Shown here: in pieces, positions 7,072-47,772 of the stretch | How the letters are laid out: the number at the start of each line of letters is the position of its first letter | How positions within the stretch are numbered: the first letter of the stretch is position 1 | Assembly: GCA_002633005.1 (NCBI GenBank) | Contig: NMRA01001125.1 | Coordinates: 1 to 52,219, forward strand | DNA from: Phoronis australis | Lineage: Eukaryota; Animalia; Phoronida | Reading direction: 5' to 3' | Length of the DNA stretch: 52,219 nt | Made by a program: the position numbers and the translations under genes | The notes under the pieces: model-generated | Database searches by the model: none | What the model was told of the DNA's origin: nothing | The model's input: only the letters and a program-made list of their open reading frames with translations

Positions 7072-7440
7072 CCTTATCACTCTTCACTACACATTATAGG
7101 CCTTGTGACTCTTCACTACACAATACACCTTGTGACTCTTCACTACACAATACACCTTGTGACTCTTCACTACACAATACACCTTGTCACTCTTCACTAC
7201 ACAATACACCTTGTGACTCTTCACTACACAATACACCTTGTGACTCTTCACTACCCATTATAAACCCCTGACTCTTCATTACACATTATAGGCCTTGTGA
7301 CTCTTCACTACACTCTTCACTACGCATTATAAACCCCTGACTCTTCACTACCCATTATAAACCCCTGACTCTTCACTACCCATTATAAACCCCTGACTCT
7401 TCACTACACATTATAAACCTTCTGTCTCTTCCCTACACAC
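7072..7440. repeat. Minisatellite, ~27-bp unit CCTTGTGACTCTTCACTACACAATACA
   Basis: About 13 tandem copies with 26/27-bp variants. Produces the spurious HLVTLHYTI ORF. Confidence 0.95.
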
Positions 7441-8012
7441 TTAAGAGTAAAGTATCTCCCCTGCAGGACACAACATGGCCGACAACTGAAATATTATTTT
7501 ATACTTTCCATGCAATATATGCAGCAGTAAATTAAATGATAATCGTGTTCCACGTTTTGTACCACAGCTACCAAGAGACAAAGTTTGAAAAATCTTGGAC
7601 ATTAACAGAAATAATAGACACAATGAAGAAAGGGGTGTCATGGCAACTTCATTTCTCTCGCTATAGGTGAGAGTTTACTGTAGTCATGGTTATCTTCACT
7701 GTAGTTGATGCCTTGTGCCTGCAGGTATTCACCAAACATTATTCATTACAATCTCGCCATATTCAGACTAACATAATAGCCAAAATTGGACATTTTCACT
7801 TTTTTAAGACTCTGCTGGTTGGAAAGCTCAAAAATTTTCAATGCATTGCGAGGCTGATGAAAGCTTTACCTTTGGCATACAACACACAACGATAGACCCT
7901 TTACTTGGTAATAATGAACACGTGAAAAAAGAAAAAAATAAAATTTCCTTTCTATGCCACATTTTGTCCTACATTGATGAGATTTAACCTTGAACTTGTT
8001 CACTGGCATTAA

Positions 8013-16800: not shown

Positions 16801-17175
16801 TATGGGCGGCCGTTTATGCAAAAAACATTAAAATGTATATTCAATTCCATTTAATGAACTCAATGCCAACTGTATGACAATTCAATCCTATCTTGTGTAT
16901 TCAATGCTATTACATCAATCCAATCCACATTCGTCGATTCTATGTCGTGAACTCAATGCTGTTTTGTATATTCTATCCTGTTTACTGAATTCAATGTTGT
17001 TTAGTCGATTCTGTTTCGTCTNATTCTATACCGTGAACTCAATGCTGTTTTGTATATTCTATCCTGTTTACTGAATTCAATGTTGTTTAGTCGATTCTCT
17101 TTCGTCTATCCTATCGTCTCCCACTTCATGAATTCAATCCAGTCTCGTCGATTCTGTTTCGTCAATCCTGGCGGC
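16801..17175 (+). repeat. Left terminal inverted repeat
   Basis: Reverse complement of 47492-47772. Contains an ~85-bp duplication across the N at 17022. The ORF track shows near-identical MTIQSYLVYS ORFs on opposite strands. Confidence 0.93.
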
Positions 17176-17295
17176 CTAAGACACAACTAATATATGGCAT
17201 ATGCGCATGCGCCTTTGTGCTCCTTGGCGATAACCATTGAGCTATATATATATCAGTGCTATATTTATCTCATTGGCGAAAATTTCAAGCTGGAG

Positions 17296-20200
17296 ATGTC
17301 GACGACAAGACTGTTTACTCTTGAAATAGAAACTTTGAGAACACATCTTCAAGAAACACTACAATTCGATGACGGGTTCCTATATAGGTTGGAGCATTTG
17401 CTTAGGAGAATTTTGGATGTTCCAGGACTAGAAGATGCGGCTTTGCCTTTGTCACGAGCAGCCGATATTTTTAGGAATGCAAGTGCCCTTAGTGACCATG
17501 TTCATGGTGATGCACGTAATCAACCCGATATTTTACAAAATGGANATGTTGGATGTTCCAGGACTAGAAGATGCGGCTTTGCCTTTGTCACGAGCAGCCG
17601 ATCTTTTTAGGAATGCAAGTGTCCTTAGTGACCATGTTCATGGTCATGCACGTAATCAACCCGATATTTTACAAAATGGAAAACAAGGAAGACCAAAGTT
17701 TAACATCGATTATAGACAGCTGAGATTCTTTGTAGGTAAGTTTGGTACAAACATGTTTGAGATTTAATTTCGCACAAATACTTGTACAGTACATTCGGCA
17801 AGCCAGTTCGGGACCACCTCGCACGCAAATTACTAAATTAAATTTTAAAGAATTAATTAACTAATATTACAGCCATCGACTTGTGTTTATTTTGTTATCT
17901 TGGATCGCCAAGCTTTAGATCAACTGCTTTGTGCCTTTAAACCACTAAAAGAATTTGATGGACTTTTTAAGACCCACCTAAGAAAAACCACGACGGTTAA
18001 GAAAAATGAACTTTCAATCAAAACTAAAAGATTGCGCTGCGAATCAAGAACCACAACTTCAAAAAGGAGATCTACTTAAAATAATTTTCGTACACGTACG
18101 TTGACAAACATCGTGGGTATCCCGGGGGTGTGCAGTCCGAAAATCANTAGACCAACTGCTTTGTGCCTTTAAACCACTGAAAGAATTTGATGGACTTTTT
18201 AAGACCCACCTAAGAAAAACCACAACGGTTAAGAAAAATGAACTTTCAATCAAAACTAAAAGATTGCGCTGCGAATCAAGAACCACAACTTCAAAAAGAA
18301 GCTCGACTTAAAATAAATTTCGTACACGTACATGTACGTTGACAAACATCGTGGGTATCCCGGGGGTGTGCAGTCCGAAAATCAAGATAAGCTTACTTGC
18401 TCACCCTTCCGGAAGGTTTGGCCAGTAGAAAGATACCTTTCATGAGGAAATACAATAAAAAGCCAACCTTCCGGGCCACCCCACTCCACTTAATGAGGAC
18501 GTCACAATTACTTTCTTGAGTCGCCGCGCGCCAACTCTGAAGGCCTCTCCGCTAACCGACAACGCAATCGACATGATAAGTGGGTTGTCTGTACGAACGT
18601 CCAAATTTCTGCCTTGTGAAAATTTTAACGCCTACGGGCGTATACATGGCACAATAGGCGACGAGCCTTTTGCAGTCCAATGCGAGAGCGTTCACATAGG
18701 CCTACCCGGAATCGCTTGTGGGTATTCATCGATTTCCCCCTTTTGACACGAACGTTCACTCGTAAGCTTACTCCCCCGCTTAGTCGTGGTTTTGCGCAAC
18801 CATCCTAGTAGTAATGGTCAAGTATGGTTACCACTTACTTGTAATTATAATCAATGTCCGTTAACACACGACCTTATTTGTTAGCTGATATTGGTTATAC
18901 AGTAGTGACATGGCTCTTTTCACAAATAGGCTCAATGGCATTTAAAAATTTGGAAAACAATCTACATAACAGATTATTACTATTTGATCCCAATTTTGAT
19001 TTTCTCTTTCTTTTCAGAGAATGGGTTTACAGTAAAAGAAATATCTAATTTCTATAATGTCAGTCCTCGTACCATCAATTACCGCTTACACGAATTTGGA
19101 TTTTCCGTTCATTCCAAATTTACAGACATCAGTGACGAGCTTTTGGACAGTAAAGTTTTATATTATCTTCAATCTTTTCCTAATGCTGGTAAGTTTGAGA
19201 ATTATCTTACTCTGAATAAACTTGCAGTTCCAACTGCTGCTCGGATAAGTTCATGTTGAGATGTTTCGGAGATATAGCCTTCAAACTTTGGAACGTTTTT
19301 TTTTTTNNNNNNNNNNNNNNNNNNNNNNNNNNNNNNNNNNNNNNNNNNNNNNNNNNNNNNNNNNNNNNNNNNNNNNNNNNNNNNNNNNNNNNNNNNNNNN
19401 NNNNNNNNNNNNNNNNNNNNNNNNNNNNNNNNNNNNNNNNNNNNNNNNNNNNNNNNNNNNNNNNNNNNNNNNNNNNNNNNNNNNNNNNNNNNNNNNNNNN
19501 NNNNNNNNNNNNNNNNNNNNNNNNNNNNNNNNNNNNNNNNNNNNNNNNNNNNNNNNNNNNNNNNNNNNNNNNNNNNNNNNNNNNNNNNNNNNNNNNNNNN
19601 NNNNNNNNNNNNNNNNNNNNNNNNNNNNNNNNNNNNNNNNNNNNNNNNNNNNNNNNNNNNNNNNNNNNNNNNNNNNNNNNNNNNNNNNNNNNNNNNNNNN
19701 NNNNNNNNNNNNNNNNNNNNNNNNNNNNNNNNNNNNNNNNNNNNNNNNNNNNNNNNNNNNNNNNNNNNNNNNNNNNNNNNNNNAGAATAGAGAGGTTATG
19801 GAGAGATGTGTATGAAGCGGTTTTATGTGAATTTAAAGACATTTTTCATTATCTTGAACAGTCTGGCGATTTACAACCGGACAATGAAATGGCATTAGCC
19901 GCCCTTCATTTTGTTTTTGTGCCACGAATCAACAAGAAGTTGGATCTGTTTGTGAATATGTGGAACAATCACAAAATAAGAACAGCACAAAACAAGACCC
20001 CTTTGCAGCTGTTTCTACGGGGGATGACTGGCGGTGCACCTGAAGCGGTTCAACAAGAATACTTTTCAGGAAGGGTAGGCTCCCTCCTTATATTAAGTAG
20101 ATGGCTGCCCATTCTTGATCTAGCAATCCCCTCTGGTCACAGGGGGCGGATTAGAGGGAACTGATGCATGTGTAAATTATGTTTATCTCATACTTCTCTC

Positions 20201-20495
20201 GTAAACTAGAAGCAATAGCAGGTTCATTTACTTTTTTGAGTATCAATGGATTCTTTGCAATTTTTATTTAAATAATAGTATACATGCATATTTGTAGGTA
20301 ACACCCTTTGGCTTTGACCCAGATGGCCCATTTCCTGCAGATGATGATGAAGGTGTGTTTGTACCAGAGGTAGATATCACAGCTCAACCCATTCTGGAAG
20401 ACTTGACCTTGCCTAATGAAGACGAAGACAGATGGGGCATCGAGTCCTATAAACACGTTATGCAAAGTATTTCTGAAAGAACTGGCTCTGAATGA
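17296..20495 (+). CDS. IS3-like / integrase-core-domain DDE transposase (spliced; central part in the N-gap)
   Basis: Exon 17296-17735 (..QGRPKFNIDYRQLRFFV; 17546-17680 duplicates the sequence before the N at 17545). Exon 19018-19188 (ENGFTVKEISNFYNVSPRTINYRL..ISDELLD..PNAG, HTH-like). Gap. Exon part 19784-20074 (RIERLWRDV..LHFVFVPRI..WNNHKIRT..TPLQL). Exon 20298-20495 (FGFDPDGP..WGIESY..*). Visible phases are compatible; the first catalytic Asp residues are not visible. Confidence 0.88.
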
Positions 20496-21072
20496 AGTCC
20501 TCTGGTTAAAGAGTGTAAACTATTAAAAGAGCAACTTAAATCTACACCACTCAACAAAGACGTTGCATATTTTTATGAGTTNAATAGTATACATGCATAT
20601 TTGTAGGTAACACCCTTTGGCTTTGACCCAGATGGCCCATTTCCTGCAGATGATGATGGTGTGTTTGTACCAGAGGTAGATATCACAGCTCACCCCATTC
20701 TGGAAGACTTGACCTTGCCCAATGAAGACGAAGACAGATGGGGCATCGAGTCCTATAAACACGTTATCCAAAGTATTTCTGAAAGAACTGGCTCTGAATG
20801 AAGTCCTCTGATTAAAGAGTGTAAACTATTAAAAGAGCAACTTAAATCTACACCACTCAACAAAGACGTTGCATATTTTTATGAGTTTCTATATTTCGAG
20901 GGCCGTAAGTCAGAATTGGCTGCTTTTTGTCGAAGTACATTTTAATTTGTATGAAAAGTTACCCAAAATAAAGTCTTTGTTTAGATGGACGGATTTAGTA
21001 TTTACTTTTTTCCAATGGTTGACAATCGTATTAATTAACAATGCAAGCGGGTATGTTGCCGTGTGGCGCGTC

Positions 21073-21219
21073 CATGGGCGGATCCAGGATTTTGAGTTAG
21101 GGGGGGCCAGGGCAGAGTATTAGCCAGGATTTTGCCTCTCAGACACTGGCACTCCTGAACTACCCAATGGAATCTTGGAGAATTTTAGGGGGGCATGGCC
21201 CCCTCTAAATCCGCCGTTG
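21073..21219. mobile_element. Short MITE (CATGGGCGGATCCAGG...TAAATCCGCCGTTG); second copy ~36594-36740
   Basis: Imperfect inverted ends GGCGGAT/ATCCGCC with G-rich and C-rich subterminal arms. The same family appears at ~5922-6030. Confidence 0.6.
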
Positions 21220-24200
21220 CCGTCAAAGCATACGGGGCACGAGCTGATCGCTAGTGTTTCAAAATACCGCTATTTTCATTTTGCCGGTATTTTACAAACT
21301 AATGGACGTACAGGTGTGAAATTTTCAAGGTGTTTTTGAAAAAGAATGCGTTTCCATAAAATATTAAAATCACAAAATATTGGAATATTTTGACTTATTA
21401 GTCTGAACCACGACTACGCTTTTTGGACACCTGTTCACGTATCGGTGGCGTTAAAAATGGCGAATAAGATTACGTAGTCGTTAGAATGGTGTTTCTCAAA
21501 AACCACACCACGGATTAAGCATTGAAAACTTCATAAAAAACCACGTTGAAGTCCTGTTCTCACACTCTCACACGTTGTTAACCCTTATCACATGGTTAGA
21601 GGATGTTATAAGGATCCAAGAAGTACCTACCCCATAACTAATACACGACCCGTACTAGAAAAAAATTAAATGAACGCGCCACTCACGATTCGCACCCGAA
21701 GAACCACCGCCATTTTGAACTTGCCGCGAACCTGGAAGTACAATTCATTCAGGAACCCAGACTAAGAAAACGCTGACAGTGTGAATGGACGAGTGCCTGT
21801 TACCAGCCTGAAAACGAGGATAAAATAATGGACAGCGCGCCTTAATTTTAATAAAATCAAAATACGGACAATTTTGTAGAATTTGCTGAAGAAATGTGGC
21901 GAATATATTTTGACAGAAATTATTTTTGCCGGACNTGTGAATGGACGAGTGCCTGTTACCAGCCTGAAAACGAGGATAAAATAATGGACAGCGCGCCTTA
22001 ATTTTAATAAAATCAAAATACGGACAATTTTGTAGAATTTGCTGAAGAAATGTTGCGAATATATTTTGACAGAAATTATTTTTGCCGGACTCGGGACCGT
22101 AGCCGGTGCGGATCGAGATAAGACACTGGCGAACGGTAAAGGCATGCGGTTGCAAGCTGTTTTGTCGAAGTGAAATGTTCAAATCATAAATGCCGTATAT
22201 ATTCAGTTTCAGACACTTGCATAAAATTACGGGCTGGTTAATCCTGTGTCACATTGCCGCGGCAGCCCTTAGCTGGCCTCAGTGCCAGCTACCAGTATGA
22301 AGACTACCGTCAAAATACAGCTAGCTTGTTAGTAGGCCCATACAGCTTTAGGCCTAGGCTACCCTCCTTTTTCGCTGGCCACAGCGCTCGCTCAAACGAG
22401 GATTATTTATAACTTGGGTACTGTTGGCTTTCAACAGAGATTCCCAGACTTCGTATGAGCGCACCAAGCTTAAAAAATGGGGGGCTGGAATTTTTGGGAA
22501 TGTCTATCTTTGACTATAAGATTCAAGAGGTATGTTTCGGAGTTCGTGCTTCTCTGACTGAGGCAGACCTTTTTCCATTTCTCCAAATAGGGGGCTCGTT
22601 CAAGCATATAAGTATGACAAGTCCAATACTAAATGTTATCATTTTTTATTCATTAAGCCAAAATGATTCAACCTTTTAACATAATAAGTTACTTAAAATG
22701 CGCAATACTTTACAACATTTAGCATTACAAACACTATTCAACAGCAAAAGTCTCCACGATATGAAAGTGGACATACATGTAACTATTACCATGGTGATCG
22801 AATAGTGTTTCCTTACACCAGAATTTGACCAGCATGATTAAAAAATATGAAGTTGCAAGGAACAAGAATTGGAGNNNNNNNNNNNNNNNNNNNNNNNNNN
22901 NNNNNNNNNNNNNNNNNNNNNNNNNNNNNNNNNNNNNNNNNNNNNNNNNNNNNNNNNNNNNNNNNNNNNNNNNNNNNNNNNNNNNNNNNNNNNNNNNNNN
23001 NNNNNNNNNNNNNNNNNNNNNNNNNNNNNNNNNNNNNNNNNNNNNNNNNNNNNNNNNNNNNNNNNNNNNNNNNNNNNNNNNNNNNNNNNNNNNNNNNNNN
23101 NNNNNNNNNNNNNNNNNNNNNNNNNNNNNNNNNNNNNNNNNNNNNNNNNNNNNNNNNNNNNNNNNNNNNNNNNNNNNNNNNNNNNNNNNNNNNNNNNNNN
23201 NNNNNNNNNNNNNNNNNNNNNNNNNNNNNNNNNNNNNNNNNNNNNNNNNNNNNNNNNNNNNNNNNNNNNNNNNNNNNNNNNNNNNNNNNNNNNNNNNNNN
23301 NNNNNNNNNNNNNNNNNNNNNNNNNNNNNNNNNNNNNNNNNNNNNNNNNNNNNNNNNNNNNNNNNNNNNNNNNNNNNNNNNNNNNNNNNNNNNNNNNNNN
23401 NNNNNNNNNNNNNNNNNNNNNNNNNNNNNNNNNNNNNNNNNNNNNNNNNNNNNNNNNNNNNNNNNNNNNNNNNNNNNNNNNNNNNNNNNNNNNNNNNNNN
23501 NNNNNNNNNNNNNNNNNNNNNNNNNNNNNNNNNNNNNNNNNNNNNNNNNNNNNNNNNNNNNNNNNNNNNNNNNNNNNNNNNNNNNNNNNNNNNNNNNNNN
23601 NNNNNNNNNNNNNNNNNNNNNNNNNNNNNNNNNNNNNNNNNNNNNNNNNNNNNNNNNNNNNNGTAGGCGAAAACAATTTACACAAAGTTTTAAACTTGTA
23701 ACTTATACCGCTGTCCTCCAATATGGCCGACGCGATCCACACAAAGTGACCCAAATTTCGCCACAAAAATTCTACTAACTCTACAGTGCTTTCCCCGATT
23801 TTGATACTTTTTCGATTTTTACTGAGTGGAATGCATTAACTTTCCGATGATAGCAAAGAACTTTTTCAAAACGAGAAAAAAATCAAAACGGAAAAAATGG
23901 TTCGACTGGTATTGATAGGTTCGGCCGTCCTACGTAAGGAATTAAACACCAATGCTATTTTAACATAATAAGTACGCGTAACATTCCAAAAAAAATTCAA
24001 CGACCATTAATTACAAACTATAAATACACTACACACACAAACGAATTACGAGATATTACAAATAAATAAATTTTATGCAGTAAGTATTTTCGGATACTGG
24101 AACCACATGGGCAGTTTGAGACCAGGACTTTCAAGTACCTATCCTAAAGACTGTCTAAATCTATGTTTTTATCGTCAAGCAACCCAAAATAAGTTAACGC

Positions 24201-24374
24201 CGAAATGGAAACCCTGCAGCGCGCAGTTGGTAACGATGTCGGTGCCCATGAGACCCGACCTAAACGCTATTCTTTCAAAATACCATTATATTTGTTTNAT
24301 GGATTTTAATAATACATTAAATTCGTTATGAAATATTGGTTAAATTTTAATGTATTTGTCGGAACGATGGATCC

Positions 24375-24395
24375 GCTTTTTTGAGACACCCTGTA
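24375..24395 (-). mobile_element. Tc1/mariner-type terminus (CAGGGTGTCTCAAAAAAG) followed by TA; other end probably in gap 22875-23662
   Basis: Sequence ...CTTTTTTGAGACACCCTG|TA. Only one end is visible. Confidence 0.45.
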
Positions 24396-24481
24396 AGTGA
24401 AAAAGTTCAGATAGCGCTACAATAATCATACCTAACAAACCAAAATAAACAGAGGACAGACGATTTGCTTTCATTTCTTTA

Positions 24482-27400
24482 TTATAAAAGGCCAAAATAC
24501 GTGTTTGCGAAGCATAGATCATAAATATCAAAGAGGTTATGTCGGACGGGGGCTCTAAGAGGAGGCAATGGCTCAACGGGAAGTCTTAGAATATTGCTGC
24601 AGGTTGATGCTGTTGGTGAGAATCCCTGATGTGGTGTAGCACAGGGAAATTCTATTGTAGGTTCGATGGAAAAGTCCAGTATGGGGCGACGCTCCAGCCC
24701 AGTGACGAATTTAAGGATGTGGCTGAGGGTTATGCAACCACGTTTTCCAGCTAAAAAGAAAGGTCATACTTTGAGAATGATTTCAACAGACGGCAACTGA
24801 ACCCACAAGATTTACAATACAAACAAACATTCAACAATACTAAGTATCCCATTAAGTATTGATGCAGAAATGGAATGGTGACCATTTAGAAATGCAAACA
24901 AATATTCACTCTTTTAGTTCAAGCCAGCAGTTCTTAATTACTAATTAAGTATTTATGGAGAATTTTAATTGGAAGTCTAACAGCATAGAGTGACAGTATA
25001 CTGTCATATTTACCGGTAGCTATCTATTGATGAAAGTTTAAGTTACAGGCTGAGTATCTGGCATATGCTCCTACACTGCTCCATGTTTCATATCTACAAT
25101 TGGTTCCAACATCTACCTGCAACATCTTTAGTGTATCTAACAAATCTTTTGTAGATCTCCTCCTCCGATGCCCTTCTCACTGAACCAAGAGGGGAAAAAT
25201 TGGCACGAAACATTTTTATCAATATTCTAGATGTCATTTGTCCCTCATCGGAACCTGGCATCAGGAGGAACTTGATGGTGGGTTTCTCTTTCATCAGCTG
25301 TAACACAAAGTTGAAATAAAAAAAAGCAAACACAGTGCTGGAAAGTCCACGTCGCTTGGTTAAAACAAATGACTATGAGCTATGCAATATTGCAATGGCG
25401 ACTTTCAGTGGTCTCAGCTACAAAATTTTTCGTCTATACGAATGTGGTCACGTGGCCTGTTATTTCATATACGGTTTAGGTATCACGAATGTACTGTTGG
25501 TAAATTAGGCTACTAGGGCACAACTCGGCAAAATGATCACGACAAGATTTTTGTCGTATAGTTGAAAAAAACCCATGTTTAGCTGACATGGCCTCGAGAC
25601 CGATCTACTTTGTGATTCAGCCATTTCGACTGGTTCGGACTGCGCCGCTAAATTAGTATTGCTTATTCACCGCTTGGGGCGCTAGTTTTTCGACCATTGC
25701 GGCGAATGGCAAGATGGCGGAGTAAATTCTCCTATTCTGGTACACTACATGATCCAATCAGCTTCGTACAAAGTCGGCTCATCGAGGAAGAGCACTGTTT
25801 ACATACCTTGTCATTTTGTTAATTTCATCAAAAACTACAGGACAATGGAATCATTGCTGGCCAAATCTGTGGTACTTAATGGACATTTGACATGTTGCAA
25901 TGTCTTATCCAGTCGCCATTTGTGTATTTGTTGTTGCCTATGGCGATGAAAAAGCGATGGATTTTTTGAGCACTCAGAGAAATAATTATCGATTACGGGG
26001 GACAATTGTGATTTTAACCCCCATGGATTGTCTCAGCTCATAAAAATAAAGTTTACAACATAAACTAACTGTACTGACACAAAAACCTCTAGTTTAGTGG
26101 GATACTTTTTCACTGGCATCATAGACATGGACTTCCAACTCCGTATATTTTCAACTGACGAAATCTAACGACACCAAGCAAATTTAGCAATTCCGCCAAG
26201 TACGTTGTCTGCTAATCATGGTCGGCTGTTGTGTGGTCAGGTGCCAAAAGTACTCATGATACCAACAGAGTCATTGGAAGACTTTGAACAACGCTTCAAT
26301 GCCATTTTTGTTGTACTGGACGGTAAAATAGAAACGAGAATTTCCCGTCACAATACATTAATCAGCAACTGAAATTGGTTATTTAGGAGAGTGGCACCTC
26401 CTCTACTAGAATAGTACGCAAGAAAATGTTAGAGTTGCGAATCTTGACTATAATCTATGCTGGCATGTCATGTGTGTTAGTGAATGTGAGACAGTAACGC
26501 ACAGTTATTGAGCACAGGACTGATCCTGAGATGAGAGAGTTATTTTGAATGCATAGATACTCATCTGCATAGAATAACGCGCACACAGTCAAGTCGTGAT
26601 TAAAGCTACATGTATTCAGGAAGAATCATGCTACCGTTATACGAATATGTATGATGTTGCATATCTTAATTATTGTACTTTCAATTAATATTTGGTAATT
26701 GTCATTCATTTTAATATAAAACTGGCATCATAAAACTGAACAATGTGAAACTCTCACTTGTAAACAATTCCATTTTGTATCTCAAAACGTTTTTGCCAAA
26801 CACATTATCAACATAACCTCAAATGAAATGTAGGAAGACTAACCTGAATAAGACCAGTTCTCCTGACACCGGTAATAAACTGGTCTCTTTCCTCACTATC
26901 ATCACCACTGTCACCACAGAGTACATTGTGTAAGAAGCTAGGTCTTGGGCCTCCTTGTATCAGAGATAGTCCTGCATAATAAATGAAATTATTTAATGCA
27001 ACATTGACAAAGTGAAACTTGATAATGCCACGACCAATAACTTACCAGGACTTTTGCGATTCTAGGATGGGTGCCTTCATAAAACTGAATTGTGTGAGAG
27101 TGTTATTAAATGGTTGGTGCCTTCTCAGTATGCTGTTAAGATAACTGTAGACCTTGTTTACAAGGTTGTACTCACGTGCAAATATTTTATATTTAGCTCT
27201 AACCTCAGCAAATTATATATTTTCTGAAAGGTGAATAAATTTCGGTCCTAACATAATTTATCATTCTAATTTACTTGTCTTATTTTTTCAGGAGATATGC
27301 ATTTTAAATAAAAAATATTTGTGTGACTTTGAAAATTGTCCCTCCAATCATATTGGTCTTTCACCAACATGTTGATAACGGCATTTTCAAGAGAAATGTG

Positions 27401-36400: not shown

Positions 36401-39400
36401 TATGAGTTTATATATTTCGTTGGCTGTAAGTCAGAATTGGCTGCTTTTTGTCCAAGTACATTTCAATCTGTATTAAAAGTTACCCAAAATAAAGTCTTTG
36501 TTTAGATGGACGGATTCAGTATTTACTTTTTTCCAATGCTTGACAATCGTATTAATTAACAATGCAAGCGGGTATGTTGCCGTGTGGCGCGTCCATGGGC
36601 GGATCCAGGATTTTGAGTTGGGGGGGGCAGGGCAGAGTATTAGCCCGGATTTGGCCTGTCAGACACTGGCACTCACTCCCGAACTGCCCAATGGAATCTT
36701 AATTTTAGGGGGGCCATGGCCCCCTCTAAATCCGCCACTGCCGTCAAAACATACGAGGCACGAACTGATCGCTAGTGTTTCATTTTGCCGGTATTTTACA
36801 AACTAGTGGACGTATAGGTGTGAAATTTTCAAGGTGTTTTTGAAAAAAATGCGTTTCCATTAAAATCATAAAATATTGGAATATTTTGACTTATTAGTCT
36901 GAACCACGACTATGCTTTTTGAACACCCGTTCATGTATCGGTGGCGTTAAAAATGGCGAACATTACATTGTACGCAGTCGTTAGAATGGTGTTTCTCAAA
37001 AACCACCCGACGCATTAAGCATTGAAAACTTCACAAAAAATTGCAAACGAAATCAATATATTTTGAAAATGGTTAGAGGATGTTATAAGGATCCAAGAAG
37101 TACCTACCCCATAACTAATACACGATCTGTACTAGAAAAAAATTAAATGAACGCGCCACTCACGATTCGCACCCGAACAACCACCGCCATTTTGAACTTT
37201 CCGCGAACCTGGAAGTACAATTCATTCAGGAACCAAAGCTAAGAAAACGCTGTCAGTGTGAATGGACGAGTGCCTGTTACCAGCCTGAAAACGGGGATAA
37301 AATAATGGACAGCGCGCCTTAATTTTAATAAAATCAAAATACGGACAATTTTATCGAATTTGCTGAAGAAATGTGGGGAATAAATTTTGACAAATTATTT
37401 TTGCCGGACTCGGGACCGCAGCCTATTGGACCGGGTGCGGATCGAGATAAGACACTGGCCAACGGTAAAGGCATGCGGTTGCAAGCTGTTTTGTTGAAGT
37501 AAAATGTTCAAATCACAAATGCCGTATATATTCAGTTTCAGACATAAAATTACGGGCTGGTTAATCCTGTGTCACACTGCCGCGGCAGCCCTTAGCTAGC
37601 CTCAGTGCCAGCTACCAGTATGAAGTGACTACCGTCAAAATACAGCTAGCTTGTTAGTAGGCCCATACAGCTTTGGGCCTAGGCTACCCTACTTGGTCGC
37701 TGGCCACAGCGCTCGCTCAAACGAGGTTTATTTAGAAGTTGGGTACTTCTGGCGAACTATGCAAAGTTGTTGGCGTTCAACAGACATTTTCCCAGACTTC
37801 GTATGAGCGCACCAAGCTTAAAAAATGGGGGGGGCTGGAATTTTTGGGAATGTCTATCTTTGACTATAAGATTCACGGGTTATGTTCAGAGTTATGAATT
37901 TCAGACGCTAAATTTTGGTACTTCCTGTTTTCTAGTGGAATATCGTCCCGTTTTCTACTTTTTTCGGAGTTCGTGCTTCTCTGACAGAGGCAGACCTTTT
38001 TCCATTTATCCAAATAGGGGGCTCGTTCGAGCACATAAGTATGACAAGTCCAATACAAAATGTTATCATTTTTTATTCATTAAGCCAAAATGATTCAACC
38101 TTTTAACATAATAAGTAACTTAAAATGCACGATACTTTACAACATTTAGCATTACAAACACTATTCAACAGCAAAAGTTTCCACGATATGAAAGTGGACA
38201 TACATGTAACTATTACCATGGTGACCGAATAGTGTTTCCTTACAAAAGAATTTGACAAGCATGATTAAAAAACATGAAGTTGCAAGGAACAAGAATTGGA
38301 GGCTTGAAGCTTCACAATCCAACATAGCTTATTTCTCAAATTAAGATTATTCATATTGTTGACTTGATAACCTGAATTAAGAAGCAATAAGTTACAAAAC
38401 ATGACTTGAAAGCAATTGAGACTTAAAATGATAAAATGTTTATACCTGTGAAGTGCTTTCTTCACTTCTTCTTTTGACCCAGCAGAGGGAAATGAAACTT
38501 TCCGTTCCCCTAGCCCACTCCTCTGCAGGTCCTGCTTCTCCTGAAAGCTTGATGGTGGGGAGTCGGCATTTCTATCGCCAAAGACAAATATTGTCTTTAC
38601 GAAAGTACGACTTCTACCTTGAGCGCCTACAAACATTTGTCGTTATTGATATAAATAACTTCAAATGACTAACAATTAAACATATTTATCAACCTATAGA
38701 CACAGTCACATTCATTCCTTGATTTTAATCAAAAATGTTATATCACAGCAAAATTATTTATGTTATTAGATAGAGTTTTACTCTCCATATCGCAACAAAG
38801 CTTGGCAAGTTCAAAGCTTATTAATACGAAGTCAGGCTAAGGCTAGCACTGATAAATGTGCGTCTGCTTAAGGTATTCACTTACGGGCCTTTCGCAGAGT
38901 TAGTGCGGTAGACTATCATTCTTTCTCGATCACAAGAATTTTATGGGGTTTAGAACGGTCTAGATTTGGTACGGTACTCAAGTTAGTACACTCGAAAAGA
39001 CCGGACACTAAAGCCAGGGTACCCAAGTTGGTCCGATTACGTAAGCGCAATGCGAAAATTTGGTCCGGACTATTTCGTACTAACTTATCTCTCACTTCAC
39101 GCGAGAGCGGATTTCTTCCCGCCAGGATACTTACATTGCTTGTCTAAAACCCGGAGATTTGTCACGATTTGGGAGCGACGTACACTATTGAGTGATGCCT
39201 TTGGTATAGCGTGGGCGGCGCAGCAGTGAAAAAAGTGGATTGCTAAAGCCCCCCAGCCCCCTATGATAAGCCGCCGGCGTGTATAGTGTTTTGTTTCATG
39301 ACGCCGTCGGACTTTCTTGTTCCTAGGTTATTCGCGAATGCCCGCTGAGACGCAGACGATAATATTCTGGAGAGCGTGCAGTAAGCCTAGTTGTCCTAAA

Positions 39401-42400
39401 AAATCAGATTTTGCAAGTTACGTTGCCGCGTCATCTTGACGGACCACGTGATTTGGATTAATTTCTGGCCGCGAGTTAGTTACTGAACGCTTCTGTAAAT
39501 ATGTATTATGTGACATCAAAAACACGGACCCCCCAACTGAATGCTACTCCTTAATAAACGGAAACATATGTTCAAAGGGCGTCTCACGAAGGCGTAATGT
39601 TTGCCCGCAGTTGCAACTCTTTTTGTGCTTGCCAGATTCGGGCGCGCCGGCGGCTGCCTAATCAGTGACGGATCTAGGATACCATAAGGGGGGCCCAACA
39701 TCCGAAGATGTTGTCTCGGGGAAATTGGGCAAGGCGTTATTGTGTTTGCAGCAGAGGCCCGAAAGTTGCAGGGACCGGTTTTGTGACTTTCTGATCGAAA
39801 AATCTGCTATTGGACTAAAAAAAATCCCGCCNNNNNNNNNNNNNNNNNNNNNNNNNNNNNNNNNNNNNNNNNNNNNNNNNNNNNNNNNNNNNNNNNNNNN
39901 NNNNNNNNNNNNNNNNNNNNNNNNNNNNNNNNNNNNNNNNNNNNNNNNNNNNNNNNNNNNNNNNNNNNNNNNNNNNNNNNNNNNNNNNNNNNNNNNNNNN
40001 NNNNNNNNNNNNNNNNNNNNNNNNNNNNNNNNNNNNNNNNNNNNNNNNNNNNNNNNNNNNNNNNNNNNNNNNNNNNNNNNNNNNNNNNNNNNNNNNNNNN
40101 NNNNNNNNNNNNNNNNNNNNNNNNNNNNNNNNNNNNNNNNNNNNNNNNNNNNNNNNNNNNNNNNNNNNNNNNNNNNNNNNNNNNNNNNNNNNNNNNNNNN
40201 NNNNNNNNNNNNNNNNNNNNNNNNNNNNNNNNNNNNNNNNNNNNNNNNNNNNNNNNNNNNNNNNNNNNNNNNNNNNNNNNNNNNNNNNNNNNNNNNNNNN
40301 NNNNNNNNNNNNNNNNNNNNNNNNNNNNNNNNNNNNNNNNNNNNNNNNNNNNNNNNNCCCCCCCCCGTAAATCCGCCTATGCTAATACTCTGCTTCCCGC
40401 CATGTCGCACACTCGACGTTGTTGCTCTTTCCGTTTCAATACCCACTTTTCACTGAACAACGTTATAGTCAAACCTGGGAGTAATATGAACATAGTCCTA
40501 GAGCCAAACGTACTTTGTTTCAAAATATTAATAAAATTAGCATTGGTTGTCTGACATTGACCAATTACGATACATTGCGCGTAGCAACATCTCGTGTTTA
40601 GTACGATTTAAAACTAGGACGGCGGAATGTTAGTCCGGTCTAGTGAGAAAGGTAACAATCAATTTGGAACGGTAGGTTTTCTCGGTGATCTCAAATATGA
40701 AACAAGATTAAGCCAGTTAGGCATGTGCCCAAAAGACGCGCGCGCGAGAAAGGTAACAATCAATTTGGAACGGTAGGTTTTCTCTGTGATCTCAAATATG
40801 AAACAAGGTTAAGCCCGTTAGGCATGTGCCCAAAAGACGCACGCGCAACCGAAGGTGTCCCACACTACTGATTAGGGCTGTTTTCCGGCGATGCTGAGGG
40901 CGCTGAAGGCAAAAGAGACCCTTGTGTCATCTAGGTTTCTTCCAAACCAAGTTTTAGAAGACAGTTGGGAATAAACCTGCCCGAAAATCCTCAACGCCCG
41001 AATTCTTCAGCTTGTGACCGATGATGTCTAACGTAATTTATTATCATCGTTCATTCCTTGGTAATGCGGCCCGCGAGTGATATTGCGCAATACTTCGGGA
41101 ACGACGTACATGAAGTACCGGCTGTCAATTTTCAGCCACGTTGCCCGGGAAGCGAAGTAGAGATCCGCGTAGTTGTGTCACAGTTACTTTTGACGGCTAC
41201 TGTACGTGTTATCACAAATATAACGACCCAGCATGAAACACTTTTTCTTACAGTTTATCAAATTGTTTAATATTTTCTGGGTTTCTTAATTTTCCGACTC
41301 CCTGACTGACTAGGAGATACTATGTTTTCTTAGAACGGCAACAACTTGCAAAACAACATGGCAGACATTTTGTATAGTTTGGGACAGAGTGTAATAATGA
41401 ATTAAACATAGATAGTTTTTCATACAGACAGGTGAGGTAACTGCGGGGATGTTGTACACTGCTTAACATTTTCATCCCTTTATGGCAAATATAAGAGAAG
41501 GTAACTTACCTCTAGGTACACCCTGACTGGGTCTTGCGTATGGCTGAAACCTCGGAAACTGGCGGTCAACAGCTGTGCTCGATGACTACACATAATAAAT
41601 AAATTTATTGAGGACAATATTAGTCAGTATATTTTGATAAAATTTGAAGATTGATGTGATGAGGTAAAACTTTGCCCATTAAAAAATTGCATAAACACCT
41701 CAGAAATTTTGTCGGCAAACGTAACAGCTTATAACTTCTTCAGAAATACAACAGCTGTCAAGTACGCCTGAGGTACTTGTGCAATTTTTGGATAGACAAA
41801 ATGTATCTCAACACTCAAAGTTTAGTTCACCATTCACGTTTAGAAACGTTTGAAGATGATGCAATTTTGTTTCTCTACACTGCTTTTAAATCATTAACAC
41901 ATTAATTTAGCTTAACTCGTTAAAAACTAACATCTTAAAAACTGCAAAACGACATTTAGAAGAAATGGAAAAGACAGATGATATTACACGTGTTTTCCCT
42001 TGGTTCTGAAGATATTTGTTTTGGACCTATTTTATTAAACGGGTACAATAACCTTCACGTGTTCTTTTTTGAAAAGTACTCAATTTCAGTTTCCATGCAG
42101 TGAAATTGGGACACAGTCCCACGAAGAGTCTGGAATATATTGCTTTGCTGCTTTCTTAAAAGTTGAAATAGGAAAAAATGACTTGTTTAGACCAGTTGGT
42201 TTACTAAGATCGTGGAACTTCTCATGTGCACACCCATGAAATAATCTACTAATCTGTACTTTATTGCATGTACCATAATTCATTGTGGCAAATTCCTCTA
42301 TTGTGTAATGCATGCTTTTCAACAACTATGTTGCATGTTGCTCTGTCATTGGTTGTGTTATTTGTTTACAGTCTTGATACATGTACCTGTAAGTGTAATA

Positions 42401-45400
42401 AAGTTTGTAACGGAGGGGAGGTTAAAATTAAAGATCAGTGTTCTAATGCTCTAATCCCCACACTATTTCTGTCCCACGCAAAAACTGATAACACGTGAAT
42501 AAAATCAAAATTTCGTGTCGAATGTTTTGAGCTTTTCCGTTTGTTATGGCACTAGTACATTCATATACCTGTTGTACTCTGGGTGTTGGTCTAAACAAAC
42601 GCCGATGCTCATCCAATACTTGTTGCTGTTGATTTCCACCCTGTACCGGAAATTCAAAAGTTTAATCAACTGACAATATTACAATCTCGCTATATTAGTA
42701 GTAATGATGCTTATTTCAGAGTCGGTGAGGTTTAACAATGAAACATTACCACGAGTACTATGATCCCACAAATTAAAAACCTACGAACCTAAACTACAAA
42801 AACTTAACTACAAGCTAATTATAGAGTACAGATAAAATACAGAACATAAACATAAATATAAAAGTAAGTGTAACTGAGTATGTGTTACGGGGTGTGTAGA
42901 CATCTGTAGCAGTTCTCACAACAGCAGTTCACAGAGAAAAAATAATCAATTAAAGCAATATATTTTCTCATTGCCGGTTACAACCACCAAAAATTATTCA
43001 CCATTTTCTATTATTTTCGTACAACTGGAGAGTGGCACTCCGAGCCCGTAACGTATTTTGTCCCTAGTTGAAGTGCCTTTGTAGGCGGTCTCAACAGCGT
43101 GTAAAATTTCTCTCTCCGGCTGAGTGTGAAAATGTTTACTTGGTGAGATGCCAGTCTTGTGTCATAAAAATGTTTACTTGGTGAGATGCCAGTCTTGTGT
43201 CATAAAAATGTTTACTTGGTGAGATGCCAGTCTTGTGTCATAAAAATGTTTACTTGGTGAGATGCAAGTCTTGTGTCATAAAAATGTTACGTAAGCTAAT
43301 GTCTTGCCGACTCAATACGGGTGTCATTCAATAACATAAAACAAAAATTTTCTTTATGTACGGAACGCGTCCGCGTGAGCAGTAATTTGTTTGCTACTGG
43401 AAAAGGCTCGCCGGAGTTTGTTTTTGCAGTACGTGTTTCAGGGTGCTCCATCGAAACTGGAACCCCGGTGAAAACAAATATCCCGGAGTCGAAGGAGGAC
43501 TCCCGCGCCTTCAAAAAAGCTAACCATACCGGCAAATATGAACCACCTACCTTTATTGTATGAGAATTTTAGACAAACTTATGATGAATTGGCTTTCAAC
43601 ATTATTCTACTGCAAAAGTTATGGAGCGATCCCAGGGGCGGATCCAGGATTTTTTAAAACGGAAGATTTTCGTTGCCCATCTCGTAGTGTAACGCTGCGT
43701 TTTCCAAACGCAAACCATTCTTAATACTATTACATGGCCTTCATTTTTGAACAATGGATTACGTGAAACTTTTTGTTGGAATTGTATCACAAACCTAGTG
43801 CTTTTCAAGCGTACTTAACCATTTAGCTTTAAGGGTTTTCATTTTCATGACATTTGGTGCTTTATGCCGAATCTGTGTCTAAGGGCCACGAACTGCAATG
43901 TAATAATATTTCTATATACTTTTAAGACGCATAAGTCTTCGACCGGCACTTGACAAGCAAAATAGAACTGTTGGTCATTCCCAATGGAGTTCTCATACCT
44001 ACGAATGATTTCCCTTGAACACTAAGGGACTGTTGAATGTGTGGCGGGCATAATTTCACAAAAGACTGCTTCAATCTCTGTTAGATAAATTATTGGTCAG
44101 AACTAGGTAGCTTTTTCGTTGGGGCGTATTTTATGTAGGTAAAATGCGTGAGTTTGCATTTTGGCCTTACAGCTTTAATTCTTCCAGGACATAGTGAGGC
44201 AGGAAGGTTGCAATCATATTCTTGAAGGGTGGTTAGGAGCTCATGCGAAGCGGACACGCCGGTTTAGTGAAATCCGTCATCAAACAAAACGTGGGTGACT
44301 GGGTTGCGTCCGCATGGGGTACGGTGTGCACTTATTTCGTACAAATATAATACTAATTAAAATTGCTTTGACTGAAAACCAGACGTTAACATAACTATAG
44401 GAAAGACGTGAATGGAGACTTATGAGTTTAGGTACGTACAGTATACGCTTTTGCGCATGCCGCAAGTGTGGGTTACATTGTGTATGGACAAAATCCGAGG
44501 TGGTTCTTAGAGAAAAACGTGTGAGTTCAATATGATGTATTAAAGGCTACTGGTCTGATAGTATAACGACATAACATATAACATTCAAGTGAACCTATTC
44601 GACCAATCAGAATGTGCGCCAAATATAAAACTAACCAATGGGGAAACAGGAAATACCTAAGCTAAAAAATCACGAAAACCTGTCGTAAACACAATCCAAT
44701 AGCAATTAATTTTAATAAGGTCACCAATCATTACTGCTGGCCAGAGCAGTAGGGAAACTAATAAACCATGAAAAACTGTCATAAACGCATTCCAATAGCA
44801 AACGTTTTGTTAGAGAGTCACTAAAACACGCATGAACACATTTCAATACACAGCCATGCCTGCTGCTTGATCTGTTCGTACAAGATCCAAAGGAGTCCAG
44901 ACATGCACAGTGCATTGGTGGACATCGCGCCTCAAACCGATTCTGGTGCACGATTTAATCTCTGTTTCAACATCATTTACGGCGTAGATTCTTATGCACC
45001 GGCAAATGCCTCGATGCGTTCCAAGTGTTGGAAGTAGTGGAGCAATAAAAAGTGTGAATTTCTTCACCCGCTACGTTTTTAATAAAAGACACTTAGATCG
45101 AGATTTCAGCCCTCTATTTCCACATCCTGCTCCCATGAAAGTGCTTGCTAATTATTCGAAAACACGTTTCTGTAATATAGTGCGTCGCGTACTTGAATGT
45201 CGAGAAAGGCGTGTCGTTAACCATTCGCGGGTGCACTGCACGGATTCAATGTTCACCTGCCCTCAGTATTCGAGTCCCCAGACAGTTGTTACTGATCGCT
45301 ACGTATTCGGCTAAATGCCCATCAATATTTGGGTAAGCACACGTCATCGAGTTTTTAACATAAGCAACATTTTTTGTTGTTTTTTTAATTTTGTGGGTCT

Positions 45401-47243
45401 CTGTAATCATACGTTCTGCACTGTTTCTTTGATCAGCCATGTAGATGTAACAGCCGTTTTGTTGCTGTTTCCGGTATTTTGTTTGCCTTTCTTAAAATAT
45501 GAGCACAAGCGCGGTGTGACCTGACCATCATCCTTCATCCTACGAACACCACAAGATAGCGAACGGTGGTATTTCTAAGCTAAGGACGGTTTAAAATATA
45601 ATTATTTTTTTCATAGTCATAATCAGGCGAATACTAGAGAAGTAGACTAAGACGACTGTGCATCTGATATATACACATGTGCAAGCCATAGTAACAGCAA
45701 CAATAAACAGTCTATGAGTAACTGCAATCTAACACAGAATGGTATAAACAACATGCGACAGGTAATGCATTAACACCCCATTCACAAAGACAAACATGGC
45801 AAAAGATAAGTAACCTTGCTGACAAATATTAACCGTCTGGAAACCCCACGTTGCATTAACATTGACCAAATATATCTGTAGAATATCGAAATTGACTTGC
45901 AACAACTTAGTTAACACACAGTTACATACACATAATAATACACATGGTATTGAGCTATGGGTCCACCCAGCCATAAACTGGATCAAACCTAGAGTGAAAA
46001 GATGCCAAATCCATAAAATGTCTACCCATTCCAAATTTCACATAGAGACCCATTCAGTTACCAAATCCTGGTCAACGTCACCCCGTTCGGCGCTAAGCGC
46101 ATAGCTAATGGCGCAAAGCACTTCCCTTTTCCAATGCCCTTCAAATTTAATATGAATTATTCTCGGGCGATTTTCCGATTCGAATTACTGATAAGTCCTT
46201 AACAACCCAAGAAAATGAAATTTTACCAACTGACGAAGATTATTTAGGGAGAGGCAATTTTGTGCCACAGGCATAAACATTGCGAATCAATTGGATTGTG
46301 AGAAAATAACCAGAGTAATCACAACCAAGCTGCATAACAAGTATAAATATTAAATTTAGAAAAATCAACATAAAATAATGCAAACGCAGGGATATTGTTA
46401 ACGAAATATTTCGATGTCTTTCAGTTGACGAAAACTCAACTGTTTTCCAAGTTTTGGTTTAAAACTCAGAAATTAACTACTTAGTACATTACACGTACGT
46501 GTTTTTGTTTGAAACGCTCCTGAAAGCGCTCTAATAAATGGCCGTTGTGGTGATTCGCTTGCTTGCCGGTGAATTTAGCTCTCCCCCTCATAGTTTTACT
46601 TTCCGACATTTAAGCAGAAAAAATGGCTATTGATGAACACAAAACTCCATAACATTTTTATTTAGTGCACTGACGCACTGGTGTCCCCCGAAAGCATTGC
46701 GGCACTTCATGAATATCCAAGGCACTGCGGCTCAGATGCGGAAACACGTTCCCGTTTTTTTGTTTTTTGTTTTTTTTTTATCCTGAACAGCAGGTCTACG
46801 TCCTTGACCCCCGCAACTTTCGAGCCGCCAATACACATACAACAATGGCGCTTTGCCCAATTCCCCCTAGGATTTTGGCCGCCCCGCCCTTATGGCATCC
46901 TAGATCCGCCACTGACTAATGCGTGATTTTAAACTGGCGTGATAAAAATAAATACTTAATACGAACAATTGAATATCGCAAATGGAACTGTAAACACACA
47001 AGAACTCACCCTGTTGCCAAGTGCACCTGCAGTGCCTGAAACAACGGCGGAGCCGGAGGCACTGGTGGGTCTCGCATCAGTTGACGCTAAGTTTCCCGAC
47101 GTAGTGTCCCTCAGTGCCGAAGTAGCGGCCAGAATCCGCTGGGTCGGGGATTGTGTGTCAGGCTGGTTGTTGACATTTTGCAGCTGGTCAACTGCATCGG
47201 TTAAAAGACCAATGATATTTGACAACAGTTCTCTCTGTGACAT
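24482..47243 (-). CDS. G2E3-like HECT-domain E3 ubiquitin ligase (~741-749 aa, ~15 exons), second gene of the transposon
   Basis: Phase-consistent GT-AG chain: 47243-47010; 42640-42569 (EHRRLF); 41585-41510; 38626-38446 or 34188-34008; 33446-33164 (YPKL..YIRPIQ..CVWC-x11-H-x3-C); 66-nt exons 32846-32781, 31999-31934 and three more; 28585-28461 (or 30467-30367); 28196-27826 (GEVAEDVGGPRREF); 26971-26844 (SLIQGGPRPSFL..QFITG); 25297-25117 (FSPLGSVRRASEE); 24750-24482 (ILKFVTG..PTASTCSNILRLP..YFGLL*). AATAAA overlaps the stop. Confidence 0.87.
29045..32846 (-). repeat. Tandem ~310-bp exon+intron units, each with a 66-nt phase-0 exon (EYESASQHLLATTSAEETRESE)
   Basis: Exons at 29110-29045, 29429-29364, 29737-29672, 30994-30929, 31307-31242, 31615-31550, 31999-31934, 32398-32333 (acceptor GG instead of AG) and 32846-32781. 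Confidence 0.88.
30027..31900. other. Duplicate of ~28123-30025 (probable second haplotype joined at the single N 30026)
   Basis: Near-identical sequence with SNPs and small indels, including a 24-nt in-frame indel in one exon. Starts mid-exon directly after the N. Confidence 0.8.
34783..39229 (+). pseudogene. Second partial copy of the transposon interior: transposase 3' exons joined to HECT-gene exon 4, HECT domain deleted
   Basis: 34783-38302 matches ~20023-22874 (last transposase exon at 36125-36322). 38427-39229 matches 33989-34781. Confidence 0.8.
34986..35487. mobile_element. MITE with perfect 14-bp TIR ACAGGGCTTGGAAT
   Basis: ACAGGGCTTGGAAT...ATTCCAAGCCCTGT flanked by GTAG on both sides, with subterminal TTTCCGC repeats. 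Absent from the other copy at ~20220. Confidence 0.8.
40645..40846. repeat. Tandem duplication, 101 bp x2
   Basis: GAGAAAGGTAACAATC...AAAAGACGC(G/A)CGCGC starting at 40645 and 40746. Confidence 0.9.
43129..43289. repeat. Tandem repeat, 38-bp unit x4
   Basis: AAAAATGTTTACTTGGTGAGATGCCAGTCTTGTGTCAT repeated four times. Confidence 0.95.
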
Positions 47244-47491
47244 TGTCAGAAATTATTCTTGCTTCGATTTTGACAGCAGACTTTTACGCAACGAGCCGAC
47301 AACCGGGAGCTCAAACGCATGCGCACATGCGACACATTGGTTTCGTCCTCACGCTAACAAAATAGGATTGAATTCACGATAGGATAGAATACACGAAGTT
47401 ATTAGTTTCACCCATAGGCCGCTAGGATTGACGAAACAGGATTGAATTCACGACAGGATAGAATACACGAAGTTATTAGCTTCACCCATAA

Positions 47492-47772
47492 GCCGCTAGG
47501 ATTGACGAAACAGAATCGACGAAACTGGATTGAATTCACGAGACAATAGGATAGACGAAAGAGAATGACTAAACAACGTTGAATTCAGTAAACAGGATAG
47601 AATATACAAAACAGCATTGAGTTCACGATATAGAATCGACGAATGTGGATTGAATTGATGTAATAGCATTGAATACACAAGATAGGATTGAATTGTCATA
47701 CAGTTGGCATTGAGTTCATTAAATGGAATTGAATATACATTTTAATGTTTTTTGCATAAACGGCCGCCCATA
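47492..47772 (-). repeat. Right terminal inverted repeat
   Basis: The outer ~115 bp are a perfect inverse of the sequence from 16801 onward, with high similarity continuing to GCCGC at 47492. Adjoined by a 74-bp tandem duplication (47364-47511). Confidence 0.93.

Follow-up and report, generated by a model that had tools for sequence, protein, structure and literature searches.

Passages of PMC10045372 and PMC6839031 treat the IS3EU and GingerRoot transposons as one lineage, with TA..TA ends and target site duplications (TSDs) of 6 bp, and the definition of their termini as TAYGG..CCRTA is taken here from sections of PMC10045372 and PMC12730594. The structure and function of IS3EU elements are called largely unexplored in a passage of PMC11934779, and the part of PMC12730594 that deals with rust fungi describes an IS3EU element with an alpha-kinase on the strand opposite the transposase. 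Here we analyse a stretch of 52,219 nucleotides from the phoronid Phoronis australis (contig NMRA01001125.1 of assembly GCA_002633005.1, hereafter the window), in which positions 16801-47772 hold an element of this lineage whose second gene, convergent with the transposase gene, encodes a HECT-type ubiquitin ligase. We find that the ligase is very probably a stable gene of the element family, and we suggest, with roughly even confidence in the reading as a whole, that this is an IS3EU/GingerRoot element whose family-borne ligase binds and ubiquitin-tags the element's own transposase.

A ligase-carrying IS3EU or GingerRoot element was not found in print. A literature search for HECT in IS3EU, which extended neither to Repbase entries nor to a 2019 review, returned no paper, and titles and abstracts, as distinct from the supplements of PMC10045372, PMC6839031 and PMC3673628, held nothing on a transposon-borne HECT. 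Neither HECT nor ubiquitin occurs in the accessible portion of PMC10045372, and the same is true of HECT in the accessible portions of the text and supplement table of PMC12730594, and in PMC6431247 and bioRxiv 2021.09.26.461848; the string 'transpos' is absent from PMC3673628 and PMC2837046.

Terminal repeats and gene content

The window copy shares with IS3EU and GingerRoot its TA..TA ends, its termini of the form TAYGG..CCRTA (TATGG at 16801 and CCATA at 47772), its long terminal inverted repeats (TIRs) and a DDE transposase matching Pfam rva_4, and 6-bp TSDs are present in its relatives L045 and L082; it differs in that its second gene encodes a HECT-type ligase and in that the copy is ~24 kb long, intron-rich and without a TSD. 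Its inverted arms (16801-17006 and 47567-47772) are 206 nt long and 99% complementary, within a TIR of ~290 nt in all, where IS3EU and GingerRoot are expected to have TIRs of >30 bp. The TET+ IS3EU elements of rust fungi, as described in part of PMC12730594, have the same ends, a 6-bp TSD and a protein-modifying enzyme on the opposite strand, but carry an alpha-kinase and TET/JBP where the window has a HECT. An earlier reading of this DNA from its letters alone (the sequence-only reading) had assigned the element to IS3EU by its TAY..RTA ends, and had placed long TIRs around two convergent, intron-bearing genes starting ~120 and ~250 bp inside them. The termini, the arms, the rva_4 transposase and the HECT gene all support this description, and the ATG codons lie 118 nt inside the left TIR (plus-strand gene) and 246 nt inside the right TIR (minus-strand gene).

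The integrase core anticipated in that reading is present: the core exon of the transposase (19784-20074, plus strand), which holds the catalytic Glu (RIERLW), matches Pfam rva_4 at E 4e-30, and the protein is 57-59% identical to full-length coral relatives of 483 amino acids, in keeping with the integrase-like DDE transposase of IS3EU/GingerRoot. Compared by eye, the Glu motif also agrees with the GingerRoot query printed in the relevant part of PMC6839031. Exon 1 (17296-17735, plus strand) encodes an N-terminal region without a SAM domain and contains a 136-nt overlap at a single N (17545), and exon 2 (19018-19188, plus strand) encodes a helix-turn-helix with weak Pfam hits of that type and tblastn matches to coral relatives (E 3e-9 to 6e-10). 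The greater part of the catalytic core (~150 codons, among them those for the first two Asp of the DDE triad) falls in an assembly gap (19307-19783), and the last exon runs to the stop (20298-20495, plus strand) and has repeats at 20607-20801 and 36125-36322. Both exon chains had been thought to be visible; that of the ligase is indeed in phase, and that of the transposase is broken by this gap.

The HECT domain expected of the second gene is recognised by Pfam on its last exon (24482-24750, minus strand; C-lobe) at 25 bits (cut-off 23.9), and the catalytic Cys (codon 24601-24599, PTASTCSN) and the -4 Phe (FGLL* tail) are both where they had been reported. P0001, a relative that matches the window protein at 35% over 340 columns, has a structure model (predicted local distance difference test, pLDDT, 79) with a two-lobe HECT fold (Z 21.6 to HUWE1, 273 residues aligned, root-mean-square deviation 3.3), and likeness to the canonical ligases HUWE1, Smurf1, E6AP, Rsp5 and AREL1 extends to this fold (Z 15-21.6), the GGxxxE motif, the catalytic Cys and the -4 Phe. 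Ahead of the HECT domain, exon 4 (34008-34188, minus strand, with an identical copy at 38446-38626) and exon 5 (33164-33446, minus strand) encode the two halves of a ubiquitin-like domain, the latter followed by a C-x2-C-x11-H-x3-C zinc finger. The two exons match a mollusc profile across their junction (E 4e-22) and the corresponding domain of P0001 (hhalign 96.9%), which is modelled as a beta-grasp, ubiquitin-like fold (Z 7.4 to the TBK1 domain, with 30 more matches on the same residues); a single-sequence fold of exon 5 was unusable (pLDDT 33). The C2HC finger may resemble UBZ4 ubiquitin-binding fingers.

With the class IV HECTs G2E3 and GL-Metazoa, as described in PMC3673628, the ligase shares a highly divergent HECT, and UBR5, a further class IV protein, ranks near the top of its fold matches (Z 21.4). 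It differs from them in having, in place of PHD/RING fingers, a C2HC finger and a ubiquitin-like domain, in a HECT N-lobe ~80 residues short, and in being mobile. G2E3 proper has three PHD/RING-like fingers, whereas in the seven ligase exons scanned with Pfam there was no PHD or RING match and only the single C2HC finger.

Association of the ligase and transposase genes across relatives

An alignment of 45 relatives was used to retrieve the best 80 of 210 metagenome loci. A transposase is present at 19 of the 80 ligase loci, in all 19 cases downstream and on the opposite strand; among loci with at least 1.5 kb of flank it lies downstream in 18 of 24 and upstream in 0 of 23. Clustering at 90% identity (48 clusters) leaves a convergent transposase in 12 clusters and, where there is room, in 11 of 16 downstream against 0 of 15 upstream (Fisher p 7e-5), and the position and orientation are the same in all 12, at identities down to 31-55%. 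Two relatives, L045 (5.96 kb) and L082 (7.3 kb, with a convergent HECT gene), are complete, each having TATGG TIRs and a TSD of 6 bp, and one TAYGG-type end was found at five further loci. Of the six negatives, one belongs to a positive family and carries a frameshift, and two end at Harbinger transposases. The latter (DDE_Tnp_4; L038:7161-8134 and L046:4066-4470) stand immediately after HECT remnants and are read as later insertions, since both HECTs break off there; a transfer of the ligase to the Harbinger superfamily is possible.

A reverse search from the transposase gave 18 loci (L081-L098), of which 10, on 6 contigs, have >8 kb downstream; of the 92 listed frames that were 80 amino acids or longer, 80 were scanned with Pfam. 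These loci are intron-bearing transposons on long contigs titled as bacterial or archaeal metagenome-assembled genomes, and we therefore read them as host contigs contaminating those bins. Two other arrangements were observed. At L091:3397-14007, between weak inverted repeats of 47 nt, a HECT gene is divergent from the transposase and lies upstream of it, which may be a head-to-head variant. At L054:1432-5896 TA-ended inverted repeats of 256 nt enclose HECT exons, and no transposase was found; this is possibly a non-autonomous, ligase-only element. Relatives of either protein were absent from viral contigs, and the accession numbers of 10 clusters yielded no adjacent transposase and ligase genes. 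Database proteins of the ligase type form 416 clusters at 50% identity (E up to 1e-30), and one relative (P0209) bears the name G2E3; the suggestion of the sequence-only reading that many annotated G2E3-like genes are transposon genes is plausible.

Matched N-termini, selection and co-divergence

Among 17 N-termini searched with a SAM profile made from those of the ligases, matches were found in the transposases of L018, L045 and L065 (E 3e-11 to 6e-8) and in none of the 14 others, and Pfam SAM matches the same three at E 7e-4, 8e-4 and 0.07, respectively. L045 has SAM on both proteins. The ligase start of L065 is off its contig, and three contigs of its cluster carry SAM; L034 and L074 have SAM ligases, the transposase start being off the contig in each. 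SAM is on neither protein in the L001 family, L007, L082 and the window, and in these elements the ligase has a short helix at its N-terminus and the transposase has a helical region, as read from the sequence, with a weak profile match in the window. Across six families there is no SAM mismatch between partners, and we lean slightly towards the view that the two proteins bind each other through their matched N-termini.

The sequence-only reading had proposed that purifying selection and gene histories be compared, and both comparisons came out in its favour. The ratio of nonsynonymous to synonymous substitution rates (dN/dS) is 0.17-0.49 for HECT in 5 of 5 pairs, all below 0.5, and 0.05-0.52 for the transposase. 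Distance matrices of ligase and transposase correlate (rho 0.58, p 0.0006 for 14 elements; rho 0.60, p 0.01 for 10 families), L055 being the only element out of line; five of 18 aligned loci were omitted, four as near-identical and one as too short. Given that linked genes share a history by default, this correlation shows that the two have long been inherited together and does not show contact.

Copy number and expression in the host

Host DNA was represented by two runs (X1 and X2) of one sample, which may be the window's own source, and contig depth in them is a rough guide to copy number. Contigs with transposase exons have depths of 234-309 (X2) and 42-54 (X1) and those with 3' HECT exons 222-224 and 43-45, against 22-52 and 5-8 for single-copy contigs specific to the flank or to a variant, such that the gene contigs are 6-13x deeper.

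For RNA, 18-19% of each run was read for three samples of one study of the same species. The transposase core is transcribed in sense (depth 4-23 over 19612-20439, vs 0-0.5) and spliced, with the GT..AG joint 20074|20298 found in 4+0+4 reads (8 in total). The commonest transposase joint (20067-20297, 38 reads) is shorter than the modelled one by 5 nt, a difference that would shift the frame and truncate the C-terminus, and part of the transposase RNA signal comes from variant copies.

Exon structure and assembly state of the window copy

The ligase chain on the minus strand has AG/GT at every modelled intron, an unbroken phase and a single terminal stop, and encodes 683 amino acids in 12 exons, or 749 with further mini-exons (12-15 exons). 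Exons 4-5 and the HECT exons are supported by homology, and exons 1-3 were predicted from phase and splice signals: exon 1 (47010-47243) holds the ATG and a likely amphipathic N-terminal helix without SAM, and exons 2 (42569-42640) and 3 (41510-41585) follow. Between exon 5 and the HECT exons, tandem 66-nt, phase-0, acidic Ser/Thr mini-exons are spread over 29045-32846 (at 32846, 31999, 31615, 31307 and 30994, with others at 29737, 29429 and 29110 inside a duplicated block). This linker (28900-32900) has expanded by tandem duplication of a ~310-nt unit bearing one such exon, and one unit, near 32330-32400, is without splice signals. The exon preceding HECT (28461-28585) has an in-phase copy, 24 nt shorter, at 30367-30467, and is followed by an N-lobe exon (27826-28196; GGPRREF; 42% to P0001), an exon (26844-26971) at the site where about 77-85 residues, apparently the small subdomain, are missing, and an exon for the end of the N-lobe and the hinge (25117-25297), all on the minus strand.

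The left TIR (16801-17178, plus strand) begins with TATGG, is rich in TTCAAT and contains an 86-nt tandem overlap at a single N (17022), and the right TIR (47489-47772, minus strand) ends with CCATA, its subterminal repeats extending to 47357. Self-comparison of the window shows that 34783-38301 repeats 20023-22874 (89-96%), 38427-39229 repeats 33989-34781 (96.5%) and 28122-30022 repeats 30027-31899 (95%), with five smaller tandem overlaps at single Ns. The duplicates account for ~7 kb of the 31-kb span and their removal leaves ~23.7 kb. The block 34783-39229 runs from the transposase 3' end through a shortened nested repeat to ligase exon 4, lacks ~11 kb including all HECT exons, and appears to be a second allele or copy. 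Consistent with this, the 31-kb span is probably mosaic, being made up of two alleles or copies of a ~24-kb element, and its two ends probably come from different alleles or insertions. The left flank and left TIR are joined by a contig of single-copy depth (22.4). That left and right TIRs lie on one molecule, on which the sequence-only reading depended, is doubtful for this copy. The window copy is a poor exemplar of the gene-pair family, while the family-level result is solid.

A nested, very-high-copy repeat of ~3 kb (21071-24131, ends approximate) lies between the two genes and encloses a gap (22875-23662). Its summed contig depth is >100x that of the gene exons, with loose contig ends at 21071-21076 and 24131; the repeat sits between the genes in both alleles or copies (21071-24131 and 36580-38426) and is abundant in RNA. 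Identity of the element as a Polinton or retroelement was rejected, as no such domains were found among 50 other frames scanned. About 5 kb to the left of the element is an exon of a host histone-fold gene (11261-11554, minus strand; Pfam CBFD_NFYB_HMF, E 4e-22), and minisatellites occur at 7067-7442 (27-28 nt), 10724-10885 (32 nt) and 43129-43288 (38 nt).

Proposed function and alternative explanations

If the ligase acts on its own transposase, it would dock through the matched N-terminal modules and ubiquitinate the transposase-DNA complex; the spent complex would be cleared and the gaps at the insertion site repaired, and ubiquitination might also limit the level of transposase. We offer this account of complex clearance, site repair and limited transposase levels tentatively, as somewhat less than an even chance. 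A parallel has been proposed in a passage of PMC9603942, where removal of HIV-1 integrase after integration is driven by a host ubiquitin ligase (E3), and is there called unproved.

Several observations weigh against an acting, element-borne ligase that targets its transposase. At the ends of the window copy a TSD of 4-10 bp was sought and none found (flanks TACATG and AAACTT). In the reverse search, only 2-4 of the 10 long-flank transposase loci have a trace of a convergent HECT (L082 a gene and L092 an exon, with HECT-like remnants below the Pfam threshold at L096 and L098) and 5 of the 10 have none. RNA depth over HECT exons is 0-7 with no consistent sense bias, and no ligase joint is among the 15 listed of 28 RNA joints, such that splicing, which the sequence-only reading proposed to check in RNA, was seen for the transposase and not for the ligase. 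Summed DNA depth over exons at 27892-28700 is far below that of the 3' HECT exons, from which we infer that many host copies are deleted or diverged in the first HECT exons. Regarding partner matching, L055 pairs a ligase and a transposase of different clades, and the elements with SAM on both proteins form one clade, so that the match counts as one evolutionary event, which an ancient duplication between the two element ends could explain.

The HECT domain itself provides a further point of this kind, which the sequence-only reading overlooked. From the GG motif to the catalytic Cys there are 201 residues in the window and 152-218 in 93 of 93 measurable relatives (a set seeded with short-type HECTs and hence biased towards them), compared with 275, 280 and 286 in E6AP, Rsp5 and AREL1. 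The window HECT is thus short by about 75-85 residues where the ubiquitin-conjugating enzyme (E2) normally binds, and the E2-binding small subdomain of canonical HECTs is apparently deleted. In the longer HECT of L082, 100 residues occupy the place of only 23 that the window has within one exon, which places the loss at the N-lobe small subdomain; the placement on the canonical subdomain uses motif positions and the general layout of HECT domains. One passage of PMC3077247 gives the small subdomain as the E2 site, and another assigns E2 to the large subdomain. Searched with a profile of the middle part of the HECT, the PDB yielded no matching sequence, and nothing meaningful matched the extra stretch of L082. 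Moreover, the mammalian G2E3 HECT is reported as non-functional in part of PMC3673628. The HECT fold, the Cys and the -4 Phe claimed for a ubiquitin ligase therefore stand, but with ~80 residues missing they do not prove an ordinary ligase.

The protein could instead be a pseudo-ligase, acting as a scaffold or as a decoy that binds ubiquitin, and would then protect the transposase from host E3s or aid complex assembly with no transfer of ubiquitin. The shortening of the E2 site by about 80 residues in all 94 measurable relatives fits such a role, as does the non-functional member of the G2E3 class cited above, yet 101 of 110 relatives with an intact tail, although no more than 30-55% alike, retain the Cys motif and the terminal Phe/Tyr, and the longer-type HECT of L082 occupies the same slot; we consider a pseudo-ligase improbable. 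A bolder possibility is that a widespread animal transposon lineage has a minimal HECT without the E2-binding subdomain, which is tethered to its transposase through co-evolving N-terminal modules (SAM-SAM or helix-bundle), charged in a non-canonical way, and able to ubiquitinate the transposition complex; transposon machinery would in that case make up much of the divergent 'G2E3-like' HECT expansion of marine invertebrates. This seems unlikely to us, though less so. The most credible competitor to a transposase-directed ligase, while still rather unlikely, is an effector that ubiquitinates host silencing or chromatin factors, possibly recruited by the transposase, and in this way keeps the element expressed. 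The rust-fungus IS3EU slot on the opposite strand holds an alpha-kinase and TET/JBP that a section of PMC12730594 reads as a means of silencing escape, the ubiquitin-like domain and zinc finger might read ubiquitinated chromatin, and the change of transposase clade in L055 fits a host target. Set against this are the matched N-termini, which point to the transposase as the partner, and the Pfam scan of the ligase, in which no host-substrate domain of the PHD or chromo type was found.

That the HECT gene is a recent host passenger without a role for the element, its surroundings in the window being a scaffolding accident, would suit the TSD-less mosaic, the missing ligase splice joint and the capture of gene fragments by GingerRoot elements mentioned in part of PMC6839031. 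This explanation is very improbable and largely refuted at the family level by the same slot in 12 clusters, the complete elements with TSDs, the dN/dS values below 0.5 and the multi-copy depth. The same linkage, complete elements and selection uphold the claim of the sequence-only reading that the ligase is a partner gene, not a captured host gene; its claim that the partner is integral is weakened by the low reverse linkage, and the partner is not universal in the superfamily.

Implications

A HECT that keeps its Cys and is without the E2-binding subdomain is of interest as a natural minimal enzyme. With a stable ligase partner, the second gene of IS3EU gains a testable role, and cut-and-paste transposition is linked to ubiquitin control from the side of the element. 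Counts of HECT expansion would be distorted if proteins of the ligase type that are annotated as host or unknown are transposon genes.

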